From positions 62,001 to 126,000 of the forward strand of contig NOWV01000169.1 in assembly GCA_003344405.1 (NCBI GenBank): a stretch of 64,000 bases of DNA. The letters are read 5' to 3'. The notes under the pieces were generated by a model. The model was not told the origin of the DNA, did not search any database, and saw nothing but the letters and a program-made list of their open reading frames with translations. A program made the position numbers and the translations under genes. The stretch comes from Trichoplax sp. H2. Its lineage: Eukaryota. How positions within the stretch are numbered: position 1 is the stretch's first letter; each line of letters opens with the position of its first letter. Of this stretch, positions 4,701 through 39,660 are shown in pieces.

Positions 4701-7700
4701 GGAAGCACTGGTCGATATGAACGACGAATTAGAAGAGAACCATCAAGAACTAGAGAGGGACTTGAGAGACGAAATAGCTTCTTTAACGAATGAACTACTT
4801 GAGGTATAGATGTGTACTAAAAAATTGTGAGGATTTTATTTCGAATTTTGACTAGCTGATTTAATCTTTCAATATAAAATCGCAGCTGCCTCATATACAA
4901 TTGAATAAAGCTCATACCTTTGCGGTACATTACTTTCGATCGTTTAATAATTAATCTATTTTCTCATCGAATTTCACGGTGTTAGAGAAACCAACGACTA
5001 GAGATAGCAATAAATACAACTGCAGATCAATCAAGTACCATCAATAAATTCCGTGACTTAGTACAACAACTACAGGTAATGCTTTTAAAGTCGCAAAGTT
5101 AATTAGAATGTAATGGAATGTTACTGTCAAAAAGTATAATTACTATCTACTTGATTATACAACTTTGCTAGGAAGAAAATGTGTCTTATCGAGAAAAGTT
5201 AGAGTCAAATATTGTATCAGAAAGCCCTAAAATAAATACTCAAGCCATTGACTACAAACTAAAAATGGCAACCACGAAAGCACACGGCAAAGTATGACCT
5301 ACAAATTTAACATCATTAATAGTCAATTATCCTTAAACTACTTTATCTTTAACCGGTACTTCCTAGGCGATTGATATCGAACTATTAAAAGTAGAGATCT
5401 CAATGCTGAACTATTATAACGACTTACTACTGACGTTCTTACCAAAATCATTTGTTGACAACGGTGGTAAGATTCGATCACACCATTATTGAAATTTAAT
5501 AACCAATGGAACTATTTTATGATATTTGTTTCACTTTTCGTTAGGCGAACGTGACTGTTTACTAGTTATGACTCTAATGAATCGAGTTTCACGCAAGTCC
5601 TCCATCATCTCAACACAAGTAAAAGAAAGGGTAAGCATTTTTTGACATTTGTGTTAATATACTTTTTATCTTGTTTCTATGCTTGACTTTAGCTATTAAC
5701 TTTATTACAGTTTGCAATAGGTGACGCTCTAGATCTTACCAATGTGGATACTTCGCAATTAGAGAGAGTAGAATTTGGATGTAGAATAATTCAGGAATTT
5801 TCAAATCTAATTATCATAGTTAACAGAATCGAAAGGTTAGATACTTATTAACTAACTATGTTGGATATTTCATATTACAAATATCAGTTACACTGCATCA
5901 TTGTATTTTTTGTGTTATCAGTAATTCTGAGTGTGTGCTAATTATCTAGTGCCATGTCGGTATGCAGTATGGAGATTTTTAGTAAATTAGGAAGTTTATA
6001 TGCAGACACTCTTCCTCATGAAAAAGCTATTGATAATATTATAGAATTGCTACGAAAAGATCAGGTCTGAATGAGCATTAATAGAACAGCGCTATGTTTA
6101 AAAATGAAGCTGCTAAATAATTTGTATTTTATATGTGCATAGTTGGACGAAAACTGCTCATTGGATTCTCTGCAGAAATGTTTAGCATTTTTTAAGGTTT
6201 TTCAAGTAGAATAGAAATTAATATTCAAACTTTTACGTCATTAAACTGACAATCTCCATAAATTCGCTGCTTGTGTGATAGCACCTAGTTAACACGCACC
6301 TAACAAATGAACCTATCGACCATTGTTTGTTCCTTTGTGATCATGCAAATTGTTTGGGTTGCTTAGCTGACTATTTGTCCGTGAATCTATCTGGGTTATT
6401 GATAATTGGGAAGGTAATAAAATAGCGGTACTTCTTAAAGCAGTACGTTTTTTTAATGTGGCCATTATAATTTCCATTTATAAATGATATGCATTGTTTC
6501 GAAAGCATGTAGATAATAGTCATGTTAAGCAATGGCTGACTGATCTATCGAGGATAATTATGAATATCCGACAACACTGCCGAAAGGTAACCGTATTTTA
6601 AAACTGTGTTCTTTTTCAAATCTCACTACTAAACGTAAACAGCATTAAACGATGGAAGAGATTGCAATGTAATATGAATCTGATGAATTATAATTATTAG
6701 GTTAAAAGGAACATCCCGCAAGATGGAAACAGTATAATTGAACTCCCAAAAAAGGTAATGAAAATTACTTCCTTTTGGTATTGTAATATACAATGGATAC
6801 TTTATAGTTTGATTGTCTTACAGATTTATGATACATTGTCTGAGCATAATGATTGCTTAAGAACGTTGGGTTTCCTGTTCCAAGATGTATGTTCGAATAT
6901 TAATGTACAGGCAATCTCACCGGGAGGTATGGTCTCACTTACTGATAATGAAAATAATTTCCTTCTGTTAGATAAAGTTCTATTGAGCTGTTATTAAATT
7001 TCGGTAATAAAAATTCCAATCTTATTTGATGACCTACGGTATCTTAATTGACGTTTTTAGAAGATGTTAATATATCTGAATATGAACTCGAGAATACTAT
7101 TCTAAAATTGATTCATAAATCCTACGGAAGTGAATCTTCCTTGGAATCACTACGGTAATACAAACTGTAGGATTTTATTATTCCTCAGTAGCGTATGTAC
7201 TATTTGCTTGTTATTTTTGGCTAGCGTAAGATTCCAATTCCTATTGAGCAAAATCGGCGCTTACTTGCGAATGATTTCACAGGCATTGCTACCGATCTTA
7301 GTCTTGTATTAAAATACATCGATAGTGTTCGAGTTTAACAACTGTAAAAAACTATTTTCTCTTGTATAGTGATTTACTAGAGAAAATTGAATTCGATATG
7401 CAAACGATTGCTGATGCCTTGCAAAGTGGTGAATATGACAATGAAGGCAATAAGGGATACAAGGTTGAGTACACTATAGTATCAGTATGAGTTCATTTCA
7501 CTTGTATTTTCGTCACCTACTGCAATAGGAAACATTTGCTTACACTAATTGTTGCAGTAATTTTTTTGAACCACCTAATTGATAGGGAGAGGCCCCTTAT
7601 TCTATCCGAGCTAAAGAAATGATTGGAATCATTGACAGTGCTGTTGCAGTTGAAAAGAAGTTAAAAGAGAAAGAAGAAACGGTCACTGAACTTCGAAAGG

Positions 7701-9580
7701 GTCTTAAGGGAAAGGTTATACTGGATATACTATTAGAAATAAGATTTATGTAAAGCCTATCCTTGCGTTACAGACCCTATAAATGTTACTGTCATATCAT
7801 GCCTAGAATGATGAAATAGGAGAGCTCAAAGTACGAATTAATATGTTGGAGAAACGTGTTGAAAATGCGACAAAAGAGGTGCCCTGAAGAGTGATGAATG
7901 CCATTTTTTAAGGCTTGCTATTAATTGCTATTTTCCGATATTTGTGCAGTCGCAAGCCCACCTTCAGGATTTAGAAAGGAAACTAGAACACACGAAAGAA
8001 GAATTGGCTAAGAAGGAGAGGTTATCAATTATTCAATCGTTGCTTCAGTCTATAATTAACTTAAATTAAAATACTATGAAACTGAATTAGTGTGTTTGAA
8101 GCTGCGATGGATGGACTACAACAAGACATTGAAGATTTAGAGAGAGAAAAAGAAGAATTAGAGAAAAGGCTGAATACTGTCGCTAAAAAATCGATGATGA
8201 CTAATATTTCTCAACGTGGTCCGCCATCTGGAATAGCTGCTATTGTTGCTGGATTAAGCGGATCATCAGGCACTGATCTTAATACTGATAGTAACACTAT
8301 TACACCTGGATCTATAATTGCTGGTGAAACGTCTCAAGTTGTTATCCGAGATTCTGACAGTATTTTGAAACAGGTTCTTAAAATAGCTATGCTTAAAAAT
8401 TGTACGTGCTTGAACTAAATCAACTTCATGGAGTCAATATTTTAAAGAATGATACAAAAAATCTTATGCTAGGTGGATATTTTAAAGTCAACGGTTCGCT
8501 ATCTTAGAAATGAAAACCTTCGATTAAAGGGAGAGAAAGCTAAGGTTCTCTATATATGTATTATTATTATTTAAATTCGCTCATAGTGATCTGGCTATTA
8601 CAATACTTTTAAACCTGTATATAACGTTTAAAACAAATTGATTGCATCTGGCTTTGTTAGATTGAATTAGCAAGCCTCCCACCAATAATATTGCCGAATA
8701 GTTTAAGTAAGCCTTACGATGAATTAGAAGCAGAAAAAGAAGCTGATGGAAACACGGAAACTATAGACGGTAAGGCAACAGATGTTTATAATTTTATTAT
8801 CTACCTCTAATATAATCAACTGACGTGTTTTACTAGATGAGCAAGAAAAAGAAACGAAAATTGATGTGAACAAAGAAAATTCTACAGATACAACATTTCA
8901 GATTGCCTCCTCGAGAGCACCCATGCAAATTAAGTCAAGGTCTACCACTAAAACTACTGAATACTCTGTACAATCAGTTGTGCGAGAAATATGTGATGTC
9001 CTTCATGTTAGTACTGTATTCGTAATATTAAAATTTTTTATTAAGAATTTTCACAACATATATTTTGATTTAAAATTCTTCATCTGTAAAATCTAACCAC
9101 AGAGAATTGAGTCCGCTAGTTCAAATCCGATAGTGGTTGATATTAGCAACAGAAAGCCTGGAAATGTACCAGCCTCAGAAAAACAAAAACCTAGTCACCA
9201 GCTGGTAAACAGGGTTGCTTCTCTAAATGAACTGCAATCCTCGTATGACCAACTTCAAAAAAAAGTATCAACATTTGTTGCTAATCGACTTCCTGGTGGT
9301 GTATCAAAGACTACATTTTCTTCATTTGTTACCCCTGTTTTCTCGAAGGTATTTAAATCATACATAAATTTCTTATCTTTACTTTATAATTAAGTCTTTA
9401 ATACGATAGCATCTTTACTCACTGTATTAATCATCCTAGTCATTCTATGAACAAGCTGCTACTCCTGTTATTGGAAAAGTAACGATACCAACTTTGGAGA
9501 ACGAGTATAAAATGGACAGACATAACTTATTGTTACAGCATTCTCAATGGCATGCTCTGCATACATTATTTGTTCGATAG
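1743..9580 (+). CDS. DCTN1: Dynactin subunit 1 (p150Glued), multi-exon
   Basis: Exon 1 (1743-2017) encodes a CAP-Gly domain ([27 protein letters not shown]). Ser/basic exons follow at 2595-2699 and 2923-3158, then coiled-coil exons ([85 protein letters not shown]). Last exon ends [12 protein letters not shown] at 9580. Confidence 0.96.
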
Positions 9581-11776
9581 TTATTGATTCTTGCTACTAT
9601 CTGTTTTGAAATTTATTCTATTTGATGTAGATTCTACTATGGATGAGATTATGCGAATTAGTGTTAAACAAAACTTTTTATAAACACTAAAAGATCGATC
9701 GACTGCTCGTACTAAATTTGTTAATTCATTTACTATTTTGAAAGTTTCTGATTATCCTAGTATTGCGTGTTTGAAGTAAAAGTGTTCTACGTATGAGCTA
9801 TTTTATGCTATTTGTACGATCATTAGAAACATTAGAAGCAAATTGTACTGTACGATATTTTCAAACTTTTAAAGTAATTGCGCTACTCTAACTTTGACGA
9901 TAAAGAGTAAGTTTGTATCTTAATGGTTTTAATGAATAAAGCCAAATACTTAAAATTTTTTAACAGTATACAACGTGCGCGTATTACGAAAGCTTTCTTC
10001 AAAGTAGGATTAACTTAGTTTTTTTCATAGAAATTTATTGTTGTCTTTAAACTATACATAAAGTAAATGTCCTGTAATTATTTGAAATAAAGCAATATAT
10101 GTAAATTTTTAGCATCAGCTGTTATGTCCCGTTTATACATTTTACAATTATTTCTTTATATAATTCTGAGATACCAAACTTACAGGAAGAAATTAGCATG
10201 CTTTACTATAAATTTCGTATCTCAGTAAGCGTAGTTTACATTGTTTGCATACACTCCATAATAATATCAATGTGCAGAAAATTTCATTGATAACTCGCAT
10301 AGACTATATGAGTGATTTTAATACCGTAAATATGAAAATGGGAGGGAGGGGACTGTACAGTACATTGTATAAGTTTAGAGCAAGACTGATATCCTAGGGA
10401 CCGTAAGTGCTGTTATTGAGGTTCTGAAGTAGTTTTGTTACCAGACATTCAAATGTGTGACTCTTCTTTAAATGTTACTAGTTGAGATAGATAAATATAA
10501 TTGTTCAGAAAGCTTATTAGCTAATGCAATGAATTACTAGTAGTCAGCTATTTTTATTATAGAACAGAATACATTCCTACTTAAAATTTATCTTAAGCCC
10601 GCGCTTGCAGGAGTAATTACGTATACTAGCGGCACGATTATCGGGTAGTGGGATACATAAATTACGGAGAATTCTTCAAACTTGACATTCGAAATTTGGA
10701 TAAATAATTAATTTACGTGCAACTAATATTTTTATACCGTAGTGGTGTATGAATCGTAAATTATGTACTGTGCTCATGTTGGTTAATCTGAAATATCAAA
10801 TACAATATATGCTTCTCCTTTGCCTTACAGTATTATACATATAAGGAAATTTAGTGGAGTTGATGGATACTAATTTGTTGATTTAATAGAGACAAAAATT
10901 ACATAGTTTAGAAGTAGTCATGTCACAGTAATAAACCGGACAAATATACGAGTAATTGTAGCAGATTATATCGATGAAAAGATTAAGAGCAGTAAAATAA
11001 GGTTGGAATAAGATACTTTTTAAGTCCTTCTAACTGAGCTTAAAACAATCGTACGCATAAATGCATTAAACGATTATCGTATCAAAACCAGTATATCTCG
11101 CCAAAATGTATCAGTAAACTTTTACTAAAAGCCATCGCACTTTGCTAATGCAATACTGTAATATGAATAAATCTGAAATAAAATTAAATTCAAGGTAATA
11201 TTATAAAGCTATTTCTATACTTAGGATTCATTGCGAGCATTTAGCCTACTGTGTTATATCATGTAGTAAAGGACCGGTAGATTTTTTCTCTCCTAGTTTA
11301 GCTATTCAGTAACTATGGTAACTATAGTATTGATCTACAATCAATTTTAGATTTGATCTCAGTATAAAATCTCTCAGCAAGATAACGCAGAAGGAAAAAC
11401 TTCAGAATGTATTAAGTAGCATTGCCATATTTTAATACGTTTAAACTCGTTGATTAAGCCAAGTAGGAGGACTTGGCTTTAGGCGAAATATACCTTAATA
11501 ATTTAAAATATTACAAAAACTTGACTATAGTACGATGGATGCTTCTATGTAAGTCAATTCACTAAAGTAATATTACTATTTACTATTACTGTCTAGTGGT
11601 AGCCTTAGTGCAATATTTACAAAAATTACAGTCGCACAAAAACTACATAGAAAGTTATATGGTGTGTTGAGTTTATTTATTAATGTAATGCATTAAAAAC
11701 AAGGGTGAGTTAATTATAATAATTATAGGTATCTTAAACTAAGTTAAATAGGCATGTGGTCCGCGACTGGAGTCGT

Positions 11777-11798
11777 TGACGTCAGTAAACAACAGCTG
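11777..11798. promoter_or_regulatory. Compact motif cluster: CRE (TGACGTCA), forkhead (GTAAACA), E-box (CAGCTG)
   Basis: Three consensus sites lie nearly back-to-back at 11777-11784, 11785-11791 and 11793-11798, in a GC-richer patch ~350 bp downstream of the peptide gene stop. Function is inferred only. Confidence 0.35.
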
Positions 11799-12151
11799 AC
11801 TGGTTGCGGAATAAGAAATTTTCATAACTATTACATTTTCAACAAGTATACTTGAAGTCCTCACGTCGAACGTAATAAAAAGCTATGCTGACACAAACAC
11901 TATCTTACTGACTTTAATTCAGTACTCATGGTAATTTTCATTTAAAACGGATATTCTTTAGAGCTTAAATTCGAAAAGAACAATCGTATTTGCTACTGAA
12001 CAGCAGATAGACCATTCTAGTCACATTACAATTAAACTGTTTGAGTATACATATGTATACATTATTGAATAATATAGGGAATCCGGAATACGTCATTGTA
12101 AAAGTACATTAACAAGAAGCATCAAGGTATATTTATATTCGTAATCTTATA

Positions 12152-12962
12152 TTATCCCAAAATGCACATTAGCCAAAAACTACCAAATCTACCGCATTTG
12201 GATTTATTCTTTTTTGGAGGCGCTGTTGTTTGATCTTTTTCATTAACATTTCTCGAGGTCCCATTTTTTGTTAATGAAAGTATCTTGTTTAGCAAGGAGG
12301 ATCTTCGTTGTGAATCATCTATTTATTATAATCATGTAATCTTATATATTAATAGAACTGGAAACACATGATACAATTAAATCATAACCACAGAAATTGA
12401 AATAACGGTTGTTCTAGAACTATGTACACATCCTACTATTATATAGTATGACATATTCACTATTACTATTCAGCTATTTGAAATAATGTAAAATATAGTA
12501 TGTGTAGCGTATTTACCTGATTTAAGTATATTCGATATGAATTATTAATTTAGTGTTTTTCATTACAGTATAATAAAATATGTCAACGATGGAGTACTTA
12601 TATATTTATATTACATCATTGGAATGAGACTTATTTTCAAGTTAATGTAAAAATTGTTCCAAATGTGAAAAATATTTATAGTAGAAAATGCTCTGAAGGT
12701 CTCGATGGTTTTAGTATAACTTGATATTAGCGCTATTACCTTTAGGGTGCAGAATTTGACGATTGTAGGGAACATGTCGTATCGATTCCTCCCATCCCTT
12801 CGTCAATAGTCTGCTATTTCCTATGTAATCGTTGAATCGTTTTGGAATTTCGACAAAGCGCTTGTGTTCTACAGATGTAAAGCGACGCGGCGTTGCGTTC
12901 GTTAGCTGATAGAACCACATGGCACTTATAATCACTACGATAAATTTTTTCATCTTCAGCAT
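12152..12962 (-). CDS. Secreted prepropeptide (neuropeptide/peptide-hormone-like precursor), 2 exons, ~129 aa, with a C-terminal Cys-Cys ring peptide
   Basis: Exon 1 is 12962-12740 (donor AAG|GTAATA) and exon 2 is 12318-12152 (acceptor AAATAG|); phases are compatible. Product: signal-peptide-like MKKFIVVIISAMWFYQLTNA, then TP-RR-FTSVEH-KR-FVEIP-KR-FNDYIGNSRLLTKGWEESIRHVPYNRQILHPKDDSQ-RR-SSLLNKILSLTKNGTSRNVNEKDQTTAPP-KK-NKSKCGRFGSFWLMCILG*. TATAAA occurs upstream on the - strand (12998-13003, 13028-13033) and AATAAA downstream (~11672-11681). Confidence 0.75.
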
Positions 12963-15900
12963 TTTCGAATAAATCTGTTTAAATTGGAAAATCGCAATTT
13001 ATATAGATATTTATCGAGGCTTTCTTATTTATAGATAAAATCTTAAATTCTATGTTTGTCTACGGTATCGCATTTATCAATGCACAGCAACTTTGAAGCC
13101 TAAATTCGAACAAGTACCTTTGTGCTTTCATAAAAAAATAGACAAGCGAATAATGCGCTACTGTTATAAAACTAATTGCTATATTTTGAAATAAGCAAGT
13201 TCTTTATAAATTTTTAGTGATAATCTATACTATTCTTTCAAATATTTTATATAATTCCACTTACATTTATGTAAAGTAATCGGCCCGGTGATAAGATCAG
13301 TTCAAGGTGTAGAATGATTAATCGATTTGTATCAAAACATTTGCTTTTATAGCTTCTGCACTATTGATTATCTATGATTACACTCGGAATTACGTAATAT
13401 TATACGTAGTACTTACGAATACTAATGCTATAATATTACTGACAAGAACTGTTAAATTACTAGACTATTCGACTACAATAATACGTGTAAACTACGAACA
13501 AAGGGTAACAACTGGCTACTTTTGTTAATAATCCTGAAGGTGCGGATTAAAGTAAACAATGACAGGGAAAGAGGAAGTCGCTGCATAATAGAAGATTATT
13601 AAGAAGACTAATTTTTTAATCTATAAATGCCAAGGCTTTATAACTTTGTCTATACAAATAAACATAATTCTATTCTTGACGAGTCGTCCCTAACGGTGTT
13701 TTAATTTTAGATTTGTTTTGTTTGAAGGTGTAAATGTCTGCTGAGGTTATCATACATCTGGAAGCTAAAAATATGTCAGAGTAATCCAAAACATATTTAT
13801 GCGTAATCAACATACATATGATAGAAATGAATGTGAATGTATTGTAAGTCACTGGACACACCGCTGATTCACACCGATCTAATTCACCTTTTATCTATCC
13901 CTTCTTATTGCAGCTAACATATAATATCCGCAATATAATTAAATACTACATTTCTTTTTAAAAATGTTAAAATATTAGAATTTATGATTATAAAATATTA
14001 CTATCATTTATATATAGATAATGTATATACGTAAACAATATTGCACCTGTAATCTAACTTTTTTCGAAGTCAAATCATTAAAATCAAGCTGTTATATGGT
14101 TCCGATCTATTTAAGAATTGATTGTAGAAGTGGATCGAAATACTTATGCAAATATTAAAATGCCCAAATGGCAACGTCATTCCCCAAAATAAGAGTGATT
14201 GCATATTATACATTTTTTATTATCTACGGTATTGTTTTGATTACAATTAAATTTTAGAATCCGAAATATACTGCGTATAAAGAAGCAATCTCACAATTGA
14301 TTCATAAAAATTTATTAGAAAGACATTGCCAGCCGTATAGATTAACCTTTGTAGACAAAGTTCTAGCGAAACATATTATTTCAAGATTTAGTATAAATCA
14401 AATCTAGCGCCATATTTCGTGGTTGTTATTTTGTTGTAGCAAATATACTTTGGCAATATATGTTTAATGCCATCAGTATGCAAAATTAAAGATAAATTCT
14501 ATGGCGTTATAGAATTTTTATCTTTATTTAGCATCTTAACCAAATCTTTAAAGGAAATTTCATAATAGAGATAATACTTAAATTTACACCAAGATGCTAA
14601 AATATTTAAATTGATATGGCTACTGCAAGCATAAGTTTCGATGTTTTGCAGTCTGTATGCTAGTTTAAAGATTAAAAATTGAAGGATCAGGAATCGAAGA
14701 TATGCTCTACTAAAATCAAACTCTAATGAATATAATTTAATTTATTACTTAGATCTGCCGTTATATATAATGGCATAGCCTTAGAAAATCTCAACCAATG
14801 TAGGCTACTCTGGATTAAATAATAAGGTCCTCGTTGATATGAATTATAGACACATATCGCAATCCTTAAATTTCTTTATCATGGAAATATGTGAACTGTC
14901 AAGTCAATGAAACCTTATAGTCTAATCATGAGTAAATTTTACCTGTGAGGATTTAAGTGATATGTTTTACTACTTGAATTTATCATTATATTGACAGTAG
15001 ACCCTTACCGTTGTACCTACAATACAGTGAGAATCGACCTTTGACAGAAAATTTACGCTTTTAAGAGAAAATTTTTAGTTGAGTGGTCTCTGGTACTGTA
15101 CAATTAATTACTGTAATTTCTTAACTGGTCGACTTGATACATGTTTCTCACATGGTCAATTTTAAGTTTTTTGTTCCAGGGTTGGAAGTTCAAGCAATTT
15201 GTTAATTTATACTGCTAACGGAGAGACAAGAAATATATTTTAAAAAAGGCTTTGCTATAATACGTATCGCGTATATCTATTAATAATGATCAAGAATAAA
15301 TTTTTTTCAAAATATAAATCGCTGTCCGCAGGTACCGGTAATGAATCAACTGAATAGATTTATTAGTAGACTTTTTAGAAAAGTATACAGTGTCTGTTCA
15401 TCGTGAATAGGTATTTCAGCTAGTTTATAAACATGTTATTGTACCAATATTCTGTCGCTTTATGTGAAGTGAGATTGCTTGGATTAGGTGTAAATTTGAT
15501 ATTAATTGTAAATTTTTGTTCGTGTCCGAACAAGGTCTGTCATTTTCATATATCACAATTCTACTAGAAAACTTCTACAAGATTATGGCCTGGATTTTCA
15601 TTGGCTTTACAACAATAGTCCATCGATAGAAAATGACGATAGATTTACTGTATACCCAATAAAGTAATGGAGGTGTACCTGCAAATTCTGCTTACCGCAG
15701 TTACCGGTAATTTTAGTGCTGTGCTCATATTGTTTTATGGTAAACAGCAATACACTTAGGAAATTGCTAATAGTGAGATATTTTTAAACCTTTTGTTAAT
15801 ACAAATTAAAATTAGTTGAGGATATTCGATGTAAATGCTATAAATAGTGTTACTCACAATTGAGTGAAACCTATCATAATCGTTTTAATAGCGGTTTTGT

Positions 15901-16731
15901 ATAATAACTAAATCAGCCTTTCCTTAAGGATTTTAGTGTATGCCTGTTAAAATTTTTTAAATATTGGTTAAGGTAAGGCTTGCAGCATCTGATAGAATAA
16001 TATTAACAGACAGACTTATGAATGAAAAAGTACAAAAATAATAATTTCAAATGGATTAATCCGCTTAATCAGAGTATGACACCTGTCATTTTATAATGCC
16101 ACATGATATCTTTATTTCGTGTTTCTCAGATAAAGATTTGTAGATAAATTCGTACGTCTAGTCGTCTACTACCGCAGTACAATACCTAATTGCACACTTT
16201 GCACTAGCTTCGACTATTTGCGAGGTTGCTATAGCTATAACGATCGAAACTGGATTGAAATTAAATCTATTAAATCAATTGAAGGTAACAAGCGTTAACC
16301 CAGTTTCAAAAAGAAATTTAAGGTAAAATTTACCGTAATCAAATAGAATCCATAGCGATGGAGGAATAGATAAATATTTATACCCTGGCAACACGGCGAG
16401 TAATGTTAGAAAAGATTCTTACTTATACAGTACTATGAATTTGCGATATAACGCTATGTAAGTGTTTACTATAGGTTAAAAGATAAGGTGAATCTTCAAT
16501 TCAGCACGTATATTATTATTACTGCACTATACAGTGTTTAAAAGAATTCTAGAGCATAATTTTAAAAAGAGCACGCTATAGTGTCAAGTAATTGTCTTGC
16601 ATTTTTCCGCAATGTCGTCATATCTCCGTTGATGATATACGCCTTTGAATCTTATTAATTGAATATGATTGTACACTTCCGTTCACCATTCGATCTTGCC
16701 AAATTCTGATTCATTGACTTTCACTAGGAGC

Positions 16732-19700
16732 TTAATTGGCATCACAAATAACTTCTACAATCTATAAATATATTTATGAATTTTAACAAACTATAATTAG
16801 GTAGCACAACGGTAAACTTTTGCTTACGCTTTGTTCCATAAGTAAAGGTTCCAGGCATCGATTTACAGTACTATTCACAACCTCATCCAATAGAAAACTC
16901 ACTATACTGTTATTAAAATAATGTTAAATATTACTTTAGCAACGACTAACATAAAATCATTTATAAAAGAGTATATGAACATCGCACAAGAGTGAACGAT
17001 CGACTACCTTTCGTCAGAAACGAATTTCCATAAGTGCAGGTATAAGTAGTATGTGTCGACTTGTATTTGTTGCAGACCATATTTATTAAAAGTGCGCAGT
17101 CGGATACACTCAAGAAACGTCTTGAAGATAAAAGTGCCTCAGTTATAAATACAGTTTACAGTTATTCTAGCATACTGCTAAAGATACATACTTTTAAAGC
17201 AATTTTAACTATTCCCGTCATAACAGATAATTTACTGAATTCTACGGCACTAAAGATTTCAATCCTTTCTGTAAATAGCTTCTGGATATTAGACATTAAG
17301 CTAGTATCAAACGGTGCCACACTAACGAAATAAATAATCAAGATGTTAATCGGATGCATTCTGCTTCCTGTATGACACAGAATCGAATTTTAATTCGCTA
17401 ACTTTCCACTGTATCCCCATTGTTTAGATTGATTTCTTGAAGGTGGACGCCTCCCTGAATCTTTTCCATAGTAACAAAATATTTACCATATAATTTCGTC
17501 AAGATATTCATGAATTAGCTTAATTATAATAATAATTATATCCTTTTAAACAGTATAGTGATAACATCGTTTCACCTGAGCCGATATCGTGTCTTGATGC
17601 ATCTTCAAATAACATTCCAACCTGCACATCAACAGCGTTGAGATCTTCTACAACTCTTTTCATAACAGAACGGACATTCCTTGGCTCAATGGTGTTCATC
17701 CAGTCGCGCGTTTCAACGCTTTTTCTTATCATCTAAAATGTAAATCGAAATATAAATGTATACCTACTGCCTAGAATTATGCAACATATAGCCTGGTTGG
17801 TGACAGGGACTACTCAAGAAGAAATTTTGTTAATTTTTCTCTCCTCCCCTTCTTGTAAGGAGAAGGTGGAAGGCTTAGTTTGGCTGGAGGGGATTAGCTT
17901 GAGATTTGGGGGACAAATTTTTTCTTCAGTAGTCCCTGTTGGTGGTCAGTAATCTTATCTACATCAAAATAAACTAGTAATTTATGGTGTGATGTGGGTA
18001 CCTGAGATATTATTAGCCCTTGAGTTTTTACGTAGTAATCCAGTAGAGTCTAAAATATTTGAGGTACTTTAATACTAAGATAACGTGAATTGTGATTATA
18101 ACATTACTATATAACCTGAGCAGTATCTTTGGTTTGTTGACGTAATTCCATAACTGATAGACTGTTTGAGCTACTATCACCGCCAATAATGTGGGGAAAT
18201 TTCTCATCTGTTATAGATATCTGTAAAATTCGCAACAGTAAAATGCTGTAGCAATTAGAGGTACTTCAAGTATTGTAAAAGCTCAATTTGATAAAAAAAA
18301 TGAAAGGTGCGTGCTTACTATATAATTAATAGTCGAATTGTGAAAATCAGAGCAGAGGCGGGAAAGTAGTAGCAATAATTCCGGTGGTATTGACATTCCT
18401 TTACCGTGAATGGTCGTGCAAAAATTCTAAAACGATTAAATCAAAATCTTGACTGCTCCATCGGCGCATTTAAATTATGTAATAAAATTACGAGTAGATA
18501 ACTTTGATATTCCTAACTTTCGCTACTATGTTGACATGCTTGATAAAATTGATAACGAATGAATCCCTGACATCGCGACAAAAGTTATTTCGAAAGTATG
18601 CTGTGTTGGCTATAGTAGTGAAATCCGGGTTTATAAATTCCTGCGATAAAGCAATACATTGTAATGTTATGTGCATTAGTGGTCACTCATTAATACAATG
18701 TAATACTGTGTGCCAAATATAATGATAACATAATATCGACCTCCAAATGATCGAGGAAGTATTTCATTTTTTGGGTGACAGCTGAAATAGTTCTATGTAA
18801 TAAATCGATCATTTTAATTTCCAGCTCTTTATCTTTTTGAGATATTTTGTTACTCGCCATAGTCTGCCTAATATCAGTTATGCAATCTAGTAAGTTAAGA
18901 ATAGGAAAGTGACGTTAAATATCACTCATTATATAAGACTAATTTGAATACAATGAAATATTTTAGCGAACCTGCAAAATACGCTTTCAATTGCTTGAGA
19001 TAGTGATGTAAACGCTCTCGTGTTGCATCAAATACCACGTTTAAGCTTATCCTGTAATAATTATAATCAGGATAGAGTCAGATACCAAGATATTTTGTGA
19101 TCGTGCACAGTTTTAATTTATATTGTATATGGTATACGTATCTCTCAGAGTGTCAGAATATTTAGAATGGAAGTTATCTTACTCTTTTATGCCAATATCA
19201 GGCAGTAGCTTGTCTAAAGCTTGTAAACGTCTGTAGAATCTGTCAAGGGCTCTAACTAGGATAGGATTGTCTTCACTATCGGTCTGCAATGAGGCAAAGT
19301 AGGCATAGATCACCCATTGTTAAAGGCTAATGCATCATTAAGCTATTACAAAATGTCGAAACGAAAATGATCTAAAGTGTATCTAGATATAAATTACGTA
19401 CACAAGGAATTTCCAATAGTATAAAATCCTGACAATAGCTTAAATAATCGTTAAACATTTTTTGGACAAACTGTCTGAGTCTTTCAGTTGCCGCATTTTC
19501 TGTTTCACGTTGAAGTGGTGTTCTGTTTTTGATAATGATTTATTGTGAGACTGACATCGCTAGGCATTAAGATACTATAAATGTTTAGTATGCACACCCA
19601 ATATCACCATGATATTGCATGAAATTCTCTTTATATGTTGCAATTACAAGACACATGTCGCTTACGAATCCATTACAGCCGCAATCAATAAACTCCAAGA

Positions 19701-22572
19701 TATCCTGCATTCGAACAAGACTTATTATGATGTGGCTTCGTGTCATATAATAAAGTATGTGATAACATAATTGTGTCGCAGGAATTTAGTAAACGAATTA
19801 TATCTGTTTAAGAAACTCACCATCGACTGAATATTGGCCGGATTAGCGTTTGGACTATAACTTTTTCTACAAACGTCTGCATTAAGCAAATCATCAGAGG
19901 TGGTGATCGCCGAAGTTTCTGTAACGAAATTGGGATTTTGTTCTCCATCAACACTCACAGTATGCATGTTAAGTTTTCTTGATTGTAGCTAAGAATGGTA
20001 TTAGAATTATTAATATTGTTTGTTAACTTAAACAATCTTATACATAAAAATTTAATTTGATAAGCTACTAAAAAAGTTGATTTGCCTTGTCTTTAAATAT
20101 AATTAAATTCATAGTTACAAGTTTCTTAAAGCATACTAAAAACTTTATATCAAAAATTACGGACTTGCTGCCTGAGAAACTGTAAATCTTCATCTAGACG
20201 TCGCTTAGCGCTGTGTAAGGAAAATAGCAGTAATTAATTGCGTATCATAGTTCAACAGATGGAACAGTTATAATACTGTACATACTGGTTCAAGAATTTA
20301 TCATACAGTTCATCAGGTTTTTCCTTTAATTGCAGTAAAAGTTCAACGCATGTCGTCAATTCCTTAGAGGTAGACTGAAAGTATTGGAAAATCAATCAAT
20401 GGAGTAATAAACCTAAAATTAATAGTTTGAATTCTGTAATAACGTATAAGCTCAGCAACTAAATATATTCGAATATTCTGACCTCCGGATCATCAAACTT
20501 CTCCTTTAGAATCTTGCATAGTTCACCCATAATAGATTGGCAGTCATTGCGTATCCCTTGAAAGGAAGGCTCATGATGATACCGATCGAGAATATCTCTT
20601 GTTTTAGTATAATACCTAATCATAGTATATGAATATCATAATAATCATTTGATGCTGTGAAGTTAAAAATCTAAATATTAATATCAGGCCAACCTAACTG
20701 CCTGCGAAAAGGACTTCATATGTATACATTGCTTCAGGCGAAATGGAAGCTCAAACAAAAACTGTAGCTAAGAGTATATTGATGATATAAAATGTAAGTC
20801 AGATTTTCTGATTCTATTTGAAATATGTCAATAAGGGACTTCTAGCTCAGATAAAAGCTATACTTCGTTATTTCGTAAATCAGCTATGCAGTGGTTACTT
20901 ACTTTCTTCAATAATGTATGAACTCCCGATAATTTCGTTATTTGTTGACGCCTTTCAGCCAATGTTGAACTAATGTTGCTGCTAAATTCAGTAATTGATG
21001 ACATTTTGATTGCAAGCTGCTCCATTTCGTTTTCCATTTTTTTAAAATCATGTTTCATCTATTTAAAGGAAAGGAAAGCAAAGCAACAGGAGAACGCTTA
21101 CTTATATTTTTTAATGCTATTACCAAGTTAGATGATCTCAAATTTCGTGTCTGTCGATTATGCGATACAGTAATGATTAATCTAAGACATCATTTTAGAT
21201 GGTCCTATCTTATTTTGCGATTTACAGTCGACAAAGAACGTAATCAAAGCAGAGAAGACATACCTTTTTGATAGTGTCCGTTGCACTAATAAATTTGTTG
21301 TAGTTTTCATAGACTAGAGTTTGCATTTCACTGTCCAGGGCTCGAATTTCTGCCATTAAGGTAAAAATCATATGTACAACCATAATATGAATTATATTAA
21401 TGTAAAGGATAATGAGGGGTAAAAGTATATATGTGAATTACGTTAGTGTGTTATAGTAGTTCACTGGCAACTAACTAATAAGGTTTTAAAATCATTTTTG
21501 ACGGAAATATTAAATGCATCAGAAACGATTATATACCTCAGTGATTTCTAGGGTTACAGTTATACCGTATTTATACGAGGTCGTATTAGTAATAAATACA
21601 GTTGGGATAGCGTGATTTTATTAAATTCAGAAAGGATTCCGTAATAGTATAAAAATTTCAAGTAACTACAATAGGGGGCTAACGATTACAGGATTGTTTA
21701 TGGAAAGCCTACGGCACTCCATATCATTCATAGGATGTGTCAACAGAATCTCGCGCTATTACTCCATAACATTCCACCGTCAAATTCTGCTATTTCTGCA
21801 AATATATTTATAGAACTTTCCATCACATTACGTGTATTACTATAGCTTTTGTTGGAGTGAAAAATCGCTACTCTAACATGTCTTTCTGTGGCCCCAACAG
21901 GATTGCTCATTACCATAATCCTTACACTTTTAAATGACGGGAATACTTTCTAGTTTTATGTCACTATTTTTAAACTTATAATTTACTATTTATTAATAGT
22001 AATTATTGTTATCAATGTATAAAATTTCATCGTTATGACATTCTTAATAAGATTTTTAAGGTTAGGCATGTGAAATTCATTACTAACGTTTGACCATCTC
22101 CGTTTCCTTTTCCATTAATTGTTGAAGTCCATTCTCTCTAAGTTGTTTGGACAGATAAGATTCTACTTTAAATTGGTTACTGTCGATATCCAATGGATCG
22201 ATTGTTTGTGACCCTCCTTGTTCTTGCAAACCATAGTATAGCTTCAAAATGCCACGAGTCGGACGACGAGTGGGTTCATCTCCGCCGTCAAAATCTGTAC
22301 AGAATGGTACAAGAGGGTCAAGAGTATGCAAGCTGTTGTATCAAACAAGTTAAAGTTTCAATATTACACTAAGAAACTAGAGATGAATTGTGCAAAAACA
22401 ATTACATCGGTCTAAAACCATGTTAAGATAGCAAACTGTGGCTCTAGACAGCACTAGAATCTGGATTATACTAAGATCATAACATTGTCATTATATAATT
22501 AAAGTTGCGAACTACAGTACTAGGAATTCATTGAATGGTCCCCGCGGCTGTGTTATTACCTGATGCAGCCAT
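16732..22572 (-). CDS. VPS51: Vacuolar protein sorting-associated protein 51 (GARP/EARP subunit, Ang2/fat-free), multi-exon
   Basis: A 13-nt first coding exon (22572-22560, MAAS) joins [23 protein letters not shown]. Later exons give [43 protein letters not shown]...[43 protein letters not shown] and [17 protein letters not shown]. Last exon is IVEVICDAN* (16761-16732). Confidence 0.95.
17804..17938. mobile_element. MITE-like element with ~26-bp terminal inverted repeats, in a VPS51 intron
   Basis: Left arm CAGGGACTACTCAAGAAGAAATTTTGT; right arm reverse complement CAGGGACTACTGAAGAAAAAATTTGT. Flanked by an imperfect direct repeat TTGGTGA / TTGGTGG. The interior is GC-richer than the host intron. 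Confidence 0.7.
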
Positions 22573-37651: not shown

Positions 37652-39660
37652 AGTACTTCTCTTCGACAGCCTGGCGCTACAAAAACGGCGAGGAATTAAT
37701 TAGTTGCAGAACTTGTAGCTATAATGCGGTGCTTGTTGCACAGTACGCGCAAAAAACAGTAAAGTACAGTACTGTACTGTACTGTACTGTACTGTACTGT
37801 ATAGTAAGTGTACAGTACAGTACTTCTCTTCGACAGCCTGGCGTTACAAAAACTGTGAAGAATTAGTTGCAGAACTTGCAGCTACAGTACAATGAGGTGC
37901 TTGCGTACTGTACAGTGTACAGTACTGTACGCGCAAAAAAACGTAAAGTACAGTACAGTACAGTACAGTACTATACTGTACTGTACACTTCAAGTACAGT
38001 GTATAGTACTGTAGACACAGTACTGTACAGTAGAGTTGTACTGTAGACATGTAGTACTGTACAGTACAGTCCGGTACAGCACTTGCAGCCATTCACGTAC
38101 GCGTACAGTACTGTACTGTACTGTATTCGAGTATTATACTGTACTGTACTCTACTGGGAGATGCGGGAAATTTCGAATTTATGGTACCAACGTACTGTAC
38201 CAACAGAAAGTGGTCCTGGTCCTGTAGTACTGTACACTATACTGTACTCAGTGTACAGTACTGTACTGTACTAAACAGACTGTGTAACTAACCATGCATA
38301 TCCCCCGTTATTAATAATGCACTACGTAACGACATGTAACAGTACTGTACTGTATACATAAGTCTCATTTGTACTGTAGCGGAAACGCTCTTCAGAAGAA
38401 GAGTAAGAAGCATAGGGGCAAAATTGCTAAACGACTAAATGACTTCCTTACTTTCTTGCCACTCTCGAGCTTCCGAATCCGAAGCCCTGTTCTTACTTGC
38501 TGTACTGTACAGTACAGTACAGTACAGTACGCGCAAAAAAACGTAAAGTACAGTACTGTACAGTACTATACAGGTACTGTACAGTACAATACTGTAGATA
38601 CAGTAGAGTTGTACAGTACTGTACACTAATGTACAGTACAGTAGGCTATGCAACTGCATACTGAACAGTACAGTACTGTACAGTACAGTGTACACTGAGT
38701 GTACATGTACTGTAGACATGTACAGTAGTACTGTACAGTCCGGTACAGCACTTGCAGCCATTCACTGTACGCGTACAGTACTATACAGTACTGTATTCGA
38801 GTATTATACTGTACTCTACTGTACAGTATATATATACAATACATACAGTACTGTACAGTAGGACGACGCCATATTGAAAGGCAGGANNNNNNNNNNNNNN
38901 NNNNNNTTGCTGTACTGTACAGTACAGTACAGTACAGTACGCGCAAAAAAACGTAAAGTACAGTACTGTACAGTACTATACAGGTACTGTACAGTACAAT
39001 ACTGTAGATACAGTAGAGTTGTACAGTACTGTACACTAATGTACAGTACAGTAGGCTATGCAACTGCATACTGAACAGTACAGTACTGTAGACATGTACA
39101 GTAGTACTGTACAGTCCGGTACAGCACTTGCAGCCATTCACTGTACGCGTACAGTACTATACAGTACTGTATTCGAGTATTATACTGTACTCTACTGTAC
39201 AGTATATATATACAATACATACAGTACTGTACAGTAGGACGACGCCATATTGAAAGGCAGGAATGAGTACGCGCGTGGTAGAGGCGTGGCAGCGTGCAAT
39301 AGTACTGTACACTGTACAGTGTACAGTACAGTACTGTAGTGAGAGACAGGAAACGAATTTTTATCGACAAAAATCTACAGTACAGTACTGTACAGTGTAC
39401 GGTACGGTACAGATTCTGCTCCGTTATTAAAGTTGTCCCTTTTGGGCTACCGTAGAAAGTCCTGTAATCGCACGTACTGTACGGTACAGTACGGATACGA
39501 CAACAAACTGAGCCAGTAGCTTAGCGTTAGCGTAGTGGATCGATTTGTAAATACTGTATGATTAGTCAATAGTACTGTACAGTACTGTACAATGTACTGT
39601 ACACTGTACAGTACATCGTGAAATGATACTACACAGTACTGTACTGTAGTCTACACTACA
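37652..39660. repeat. Compound repeat upstream of SNRNP200: dense (ACAGT/ACTGT)n with repeated unique modules
   Basis: AGTACTTCTCTTCGACAGCCTGGCG...TTAGTTGCAGAACTTG occurs at 37652 and 37819 (167-bp period). CGCGCAAAAAA(A)C(A)GTAAAGTACAG occurs four times (~37747, 37930, 38530, 38940). GTCCGGTACAGCACTTGCAGCCATTCAC occurs three times. 38497-38886 is repeated at 38907-39262. Confidence 0.9.
38887..38906. other. Assembly gap (20 N)
   Basis: Run of N directly visible. Confidence 1.

Follow-up and report, generated by a model that had tools for sequence, protein, structure and literature searches.

Does a small minus-strand gene of a placozoan encode a peptide hormone, and, if so, does the hormone belong to the somatostatin and allatostatin-C (ASTC) family? 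The question is raised by a stretch of 64,000 nucleotides from Trichoplax sp. H2 (contig NOWV01000169.1, positions 62,001 to 126,000), which we refer to as the window and whose positions are counted from its first letter. An earlier note, made from these letters alone, had proposed that a hidden exon extends an 83-residue open reading frame (ORF) into a prohormone that ends in a two-cysteine ring peptide of somatostatin/ASTC type. The exon and its splice junction hold up well, and the proposed kinship does not. The reading that we favour, to which we give about an even chance, is that of a three-exon, placozoan-restricted gene for a 129-residue secretory pre-propeptide that would yield a paracrine regulatory ring peptide. 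Its somatostatin-like layout is most likely an independent, lineage-specific invention and not a sign of family membership.

Transcript evidence for a spliced gene

The coding part of the gene can be read from the minus strand, where an ATG at 12962 opens the 83-residue ORF (12962-12711). Within this ORF a donor site (AAAG/GTAATA; last exon base 12740) closes the first coding exon after 74 residues and one base, making the coding intron phase 1. The acceptor (AAATAG/AT; first exon base 12318) opens a last exon that consists of the split Asp and 54 further residues, ending in APPKKNKSKCGRFGSFWLMCILG and followed by a TAA stop. Joined by coordinates, the exons give a protein of 129 residues with exactly two Cys and a terminal Gly; at the local base composition, 54 open codons would be met by chance with P ~0.016.

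The joint itself is present in public data. A search of public runs listed 23, of which 20 contained part of the window, and sequences from four runs belonging to four studies (X11, X10, X12 and X17) were aligned. All four are represented by Logan contigs, which show the presence of a spliced form and not its expression level; X11 alone is recorded as RNA, and for the other three this is a guess. In each of the four, one contig skips exactly 12319-12739 (421 bases; borders CT..AC as read on plus, GT..AG as read on minus), and the shorter flank of the 12318/12740 joint spans 99-238 letters. The gene is transcribed and spliced at this junction. The use of the 12318 acceptor, whose absence from transcripts had been named beforehand as a possible refutation of the proposed exon, is thus seen in every run.

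A second joint, 12974/13265 (290 bases, GT..AG on the minus strand), is found in two of the four runs (X11 and X12) and adds to the model first proposed a non-coding 5′ exon and a 290-nt intron in the 5′ untranslated region (UTR). Because the 5′ exon contains no ATG up to 13315, the ATG at 12962 is the first of the transcript. At the other end, contig pieces reach 11800 and continue for 21-92 letters, to ~11708, a lower bound that makes the 3′ UTR at least ~440 nt long; an AATAAA lies at 11681.

The spliced product is identical to GenBank RDD38592.1, 'hypothetical protein TrispH2_007822' of Trichoplax sp. H2, which is also an EukProt entry and stands in a sequence cluster of one member. This identity establishes the placozoan host on which the earlier note had made the interest of the gene depend. 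It also means that the exon was not hidden: a model with two coding exons and 129 residues had already been deposited in GenBank, without a function. What this hypothetical protein gains here is transcript evidence and a 5′ UTR exon.

The contigs also show a number of smaller features. Low-depth contigs, from unspliced RNA or from DNA, cross the donor into intron 2 in X10 (12485-12751, depth 9.8) and X11 (12549-12761, depth 3.8). X17 reads 12263 A>T (plus strand), which by codon count is N93K and changes the N-glycosylation sequon K-N-G-T to K-K-G-T, with one more dibasic pair. A synonymous change, 12801 C>T, is present in three of the four runs, and all four have G at 11933 in the 3′ UTR where the window has A; these two differences indicate that the source of the window is slightly unlike all four runs. 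At 12929-12945, among the signal-peptide codons and within ~50 nt of its end, an X10 contig has three substitutions and lacks one base (12945); an assembly error, a strain difference and a broken allele are all possible causes. Record 5 of the X11 contigs has an inverted 30-letter piece of exon (12809-12838) at one end, probably a chimeric or fold-back assembly artefact. In none of the four runs do the codons of the terminal peptide differ from the window, although divergence is so low overall that this is no sign of constraint.

Anatomy and predicted processing of the precursor

By hand rules, residues 1-23 are signal-peptide-like: three Lys precede a 12-residue hydrophobic core (11-residue Kyte-Doolittle mean up to 2.68), and T-N-A at positions -3 to -1 of the predicted cleavage site places the small residues T and A at -3 and -1. 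The 106 residues of the mature protein are very basic (pI 10.5, net charge ~+12.6) and include the basic pairs RR26-27, KR34-35, KR41-42, RR79-80 and KK110-111, of which RR79-80 is a fourth dibasic site ahead of KK110-111, beyond the RR, KR and KR first pointed out. The only Cys of the protein are C116 and C126, with nine residues between them (C-x9-C), and G129 is the last residue; by position alone, both Cys would fall within the last 18 of the 106 mature residues with P ~0.028. The model of the protein in the ESM Atlas is of low confidence (pLDDT 0.57, pTM 0.17), which together with the basic composition fits a processed pro-region and not a folded domain. The best feature score there, 0.80, is at chance level, and the Atlas offered no structural look-alike at a meaningful TM-score. 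The prohormone-like layout that the earlier note described can be read from the sequence as claimed: a signal-like start, one two-Cys peptide at the C-terminus behind a basic pair, and a terminal Gly.

A plausible route from this precursor to a signal would run as follows. Residues 1-23 would direct the protein to the endoplasmic reticulum and be removed after T-N-A, and a disulfide between C116 and C126 would close a ring of 11 residues. In secretory granules a prohormone convertase would cut after KK110-111 and a carboxypeptidase would trim the basic residues, while an amidating enzyme would use the terminal Gly, leaving a 17-residue ringed and amidated peptide (NKSK-ring-IL-amide). Once released, the ring peptide would act on other cells as a paracrine regulatory signal. 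Of the features expected of placozoan and cnidarian precursors, a signal-like N-terminus, a C-terminal Gly as putative amide donor and KK before the peptide are present. Enzymes of neuropeptide processing, among them PAM, which amidates, are expressed in placozoans (PMC10580291, PMC11452194). By mass spectrometry, Trichoplax sp. H2 and Hoilungia yielded 60 small peptides encoded by 53 precursor genes, and half of these peptides bore pyroglutamate and/or an amide (PMC10580291).

The ring might also be opened. By analogy with the copies of PRWamide, G117-R118 could be a placozoan GR-type cleavage and amidation site, which would give a two-chain product. Two further readings of the C-terminus were considered and ruled out: an RFamide product from G-R-F-G, where no basic residue follows the Gly, and a CAAX-like use of the ending C-I-L-G, where the signal peptide would be expected to keep the protein away from cytosolic prenyl transferases.

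Relatives, conservation and rival functions

Relatives of the protein are few. Pfam searches with the whole protein and with the last exon (E <= 10) returned three unrelated weak hits, FAM91_C, ERG4_ERG24 and DUF2788, all below their cut-offs, and tblastn of the 129-residue protein on the window found the gene itself (next best E 0.99) and no paralogue. Among 1.84 billion cluster representatives, HMMER at E <= 0.001 gave three hits and no neuropeptide precursor; the hits were the protein itself, an 80-residue sequence (P0004, E 4.5e-7) and a 1137-residue repeat protein (P0005, E 1.6e-4) that we regard as spurious. A word search with a two-sequence profile, which yielded three of 20 candidates, added a 90-residue sequence (P0006). 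Both P0004 and P0006 come from Logan or ENA assemblies, are ORFs over the first coding exon only and are 41-48% identical to the Trichoplax protein. Between the two, identity is 72.7% over 77 residues and the sequences part after residue 76/77, as expected where an ORF continues from an exon into an intron. Past the point at which the Trichoplax gene is spliced, the relatives read Q-D-R...G-G; their coding intron probably lies about seven codons further on, in phase 0, and the position of the coding intron may differ among placozoan lineages.

Within the shared exon, the signal peptide (residues 1-23) has 12/23 identities to each relative, residues 24-43 have 10/20 to P0004 and 9/20 to P0006, and residues 44-74 have 7/31 to each; both relatives have an unchanged YQLTNA at the predicted cleavage point.

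Several observations weigh against a processed ring peptide. Neither relative's ORF includes the last exon, which would carry the ring; searching by words with that exon on its own gave no candidate, and a scan of JGI metagenomes with the three-sequence alignment and its invariant YQLTNA pattern gave 166 pattern stretches, none of which was confirmed. The RR, KR and KR of Trichoplax read VR or YR, KS and ER in the relatives. It is thus improbable that these three pairs are conserved cleavage sites or that the small peptides they delimit are made, and a dibasic pair in this protein does not by itself indicate cleavage. For convertases, KK is a poorer site than KR or RR. The precursor has one copy of its peptide, unlike the multi-copy placozoan precursors that have been described. 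The basic pro-region (residues 24-109) also includes the best-conserved mature stretch, residues 27-43, which lies close behind the signal peptide and could be a second, or even the real, active piece.

Some of these points would suit a different kind of protein, one that is small, basic, secreted and used whole, or that is held at the cell surface by a C-terminal signal of glycosylphosphatidylinositol (GPI) type, the Cys pair and the Gly being incidental. In its favour are the unconserved dibasic sites, the N-terminal position of the best-conserved mature stretch, and the last 11 residues, which are hydrophobic and preceded by the small or polar N-K-S. However, a hydrophobic tail of 11 residues with a four-residue spacer is short for a GPI signal, the confidence of the structure model is low, and the combination of a C-terminal Cys pair, a preceding KK and a terminal Gly is a specific one; we consider this explanation quite improbable.

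The main rival to a regulatory peptide is a defence peptide. The precursor would then serve host defence, its cationic, ringed and amidated tail or the whole basic protein acting on microbial membranes in the grazed biofilm and not as a signal between cells. The composition is suggestive: the terminal peptide has a net charge of ~+2.7 before amidation and a GRAVY of 0.32, its hydrophobic tail FGSFWLMCILG has a Kyte-Doolittle mean of 1.78, and the mature protein has the high pI already given. The protein is also lineage-restricted and fast-evolving, with the low identity to its only relatives given above, and both traits are common for defence peptides. Trichoplax does express secreted arminin-like peptides with a C-terminal Gly, whose putative antimicrobial precursors are described as 150-250 residues long, with a highly acidic N-terminal pro-region and a basic C-terminal part (PMC11452194). 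The present protein has no acidic pro-region, its own being strongly basic, and has 129 residues; of the features compared, the C-terminal Gly is the only one in common. On balance we hold a defence role to be unlikely, and return to the secreted regulatory ring peptide as the reading against which the somatostatin question is to be set.

The somatostatin and allatostatin-C question

The likeness pointed out in the earlier note is to a starfish peptide, ArSS1, which the note had cited correctly and which is printed, as KCIGRFQPFSMPC, in PMC7536072. Its disulfide, with the GR inside the ring uncut, was established by mass spectrometry (PMC7536072), a point in favour of the ring peptide proposed here. 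Its precursor, ArSSP1, is 132 residues long, with a signal peptide of 24 and one C-terminal ring peptide of 13 residues behind a dibasic site (PMC4772807, PMC7536072), which is close in size and layout to the 129 residues, 23-residue signal and 18-residue tail after KK seen here. In both, a single C-terminal peptide with a Cys pair follows a basic site, and a disulfide is predicted for the Trichoplax pair. When one gap is placed after the first Cys, K, C, G, R, F, F and C are common to the two peptides, five of them non-Cys identities. Furthermore, echinoderm SS1-type genes are described as having an extra phase-1 intron in the part coding for the C-terminal half, and the coding intron of the Trichoplax gene is also of phase 1. 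Random peptides simulated with an identical Cys frame gave at least five non-Cys identities at 6e-4 per single pre-chosen comparison, a figure that overstates the significance because ArSS1 was picked afterwards from a large pool of ring peptides.

Core motif, gene structure, Pfam and the reported distribution of receptors all speak against a ligand of this family. The family cores are FXP in ASTC and echinoderm SS1, and FWK or IWK in chordate somatostatin (SS) and echinoderm SS2 (PMC7536072); the Trichoplax peptide has F119-G-S, with no FXP, and F122-W-L, with Leu where Lys is expected. The Cys are separated by 10 residues in echinoderm SS1 and in human SS and cortistatin (CST), 12-15 in SS2, 13 in amphioxus and 6 in ASTC (PMC7536072), and the nine of Trichoplax correspond to none of these values, although the family itself varies. 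The GR motif is described as specific to the echinoderm peptides (PMC7536072), so that a shared GR is not a family-wide character. Family genes are described as having a conserved phase-0 intron in the N-terminal coding part, which is absent here: the only coding intron is the phase-1 intron after codon 74 of 129, and the other intron lies in the 5′ UTR. The second Cys of Trichoplax is followed by the three residues I-L-G, with the Gly as amidation signal, whereas ArSS1 and ArSS2 end at Cys. There is no match to the Pfam Somatostatin profile. Lastly, the clade of somatostatin, ASTC and opioid-type receptors is stated to be bilaterian-specific (PMC11087051), and PMC9545775 describes placozoan peptides and G protein-coupled receptors (GPCRs) as having no bilaterian or cnidarian orthologues, LGRs excepted.

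We consider true homology, with a pre-bilaterian origin and one ancestral gene shared with the echinoderm SS1/ASTC-type precursors, to be highly improbable. If it were real, the shared K-C-(x)-G-R-F...F...C would be ancestral; the common ancestor of placozoans and bilaterians, itself neuron-less, would already have had a ringed inhibitory peptide hormone, and the receptor for it would be none that can be recognised as an orthologue of the somatostatin receptors. We give this scenario very little credence.

Gene layout and neighbourhood

The coordinates of the gene are collected in Table 1. The TATAAAAG box listed there may be a promoter element.

Table 1. Features of the precursor gene in the window, in order of transcription.
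Feature	Position	Strand	Basis or detail
TATAAAAG box, candidate promoter element	13344..13351	-	~30-55 nt upstream of RNA contig ends (X12 13294, adapter; X11 beyond 13300)
Exon 1, non-coding 5′ exon	13265..13315 (5′ end approximate)	-	Joint 12974/13265; no ATG
Intron 1, in 5′ UTR, 290 nt	12975..13264	-	Donor ATAAAT/GTAAGT, acceptor AAACAG/ATTT; contig joints
Exon 2	12740..12974	-	12 nt of 5′ UTR, ATG 12962, codons 1-74 and first base of codon 75
Signal-peptide-like residues 1-23 (MLKMKK / FIVVIISAMWFY / QLTNA)	12894..12962	-	Hydrophobicity; small residues at -1 and -3
Intron 2, coding, phase 1, 421 nt	12319..12739	-	Skipped by contigs in 4/4 runs
Exon 3	11708..12318	-	Codons 75-129, stop 12154-12152, 3′ UTR to at least ~11708
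KK110-111, putative convertase site	12209..12214	-	Ahead of terminal peptide; predicted cleavage
Terminal 18 residues NKSKCGRFGSFWLMCILG	12155..12208	-	C116 12196-12194, C126 12166-12164, G129 12157-12155

The precursor gene stands alone in roughly 9400-17000. Open frames at 7863-9393 on the plus strand, charged and coiled-coil-like (e.g. 8086-8418), look like exons of a neighbour gene on the opposite strand. No Pfam family was matched at E <= 0.01 by ORF pieces nearby (6701-9393 and 17520-21058), save one weak hit of coiled-coil type below its cut-off, and these pieces have no bearing on the precursor gene. A run of 20 N at 38887-38906 is presumably an assembly gap.

Implications

The gene may encode a placozoan secretory peptide precursor with an unusual ring-peptide design, as yet unproven. 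Neither the ring string nor the locus tag TrispH2_007822 occurs in the full texts searched or in the main text of PMC10580291, whose Table S5 (400 peptides, 53 Trichoplax sp. H2 genes) may include the gene. The placozoan peptides in the papers reviewed are short, linear and mostly multi-copy, and a single-copy, ringed and amidated peptide, if true, would add a structural class in a neuron-less animal. The ring peptide is also a concrete candidate that can be synthesised for behavioural and receptor screens. It is worth considering, too, that a likeness as striking as that to ArSS1 fails on gene structure, core motif and receptors; the gene is in this sense a test of how far short-peptide similarity can be trusted.

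Comparison with known peptide systems

Among known systems, the nearest in host clade are the placozoan peptides PRWamide, SIFGamide, FFNPamide, ELPE, WPPF, LF and TaELP, with which the protein shares a predicted signal peptide, a Gly donor and presumed processing by convertase and PAM (PMC9545775, PMC11452194). Their described prepropeptides contain many short linear copies (11-15 in the PRWamide precursors), and placozoan N-terminal cuts are often at acidic residues (PMC9545775); in TrispH2_007822 there is one copy, along with two Cys and a basic pair. With the arminin-like peptides of Trichoplax it has in common secretion, as predicted from its N-terminus, a C-terminal part that is both basic and hydrophobic, and a Gly as last residue (PMC11452194).

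Outside the placozoans, a non-bilaterian precedent is provided by cubozoans, for which ringed, C-terminally amidated neuropeptides of the cyclic FRamide type (CTGQMCWFRamide) have been predicted (PMC6402141). The cubozoan ring is small (Cys 1 and 6) and present in seven copies per precursor (PMC6402141), and we see no sequence likeness to the Trichoplax peptide.

Among bilaterian systems, vertebrate somatostatin and cortistatin, and echinoderm SS2, share a C-terminal ring peptide with an aromatic F-W inside the ring; they differ in reading FWK or IWK where Trichoplax has FWL, in ring size, in their Pfam match and in their phase-0 intron. Echinoderm SS1, with starfish ArSSP1 as its example, differs in having 10 and not nine residues between the Cys, an FXP core and the N-terminal phase-0 intron. 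It resembles the Trichoplax gene in several ways: a precursor of ~130 residues, a signal peptide of ~24, a C-terminal two-Cys peptide behind a dibasic site, a phase-1 intron in the C-terminal coding half and the gapped K-C...G-R-F...F...C.

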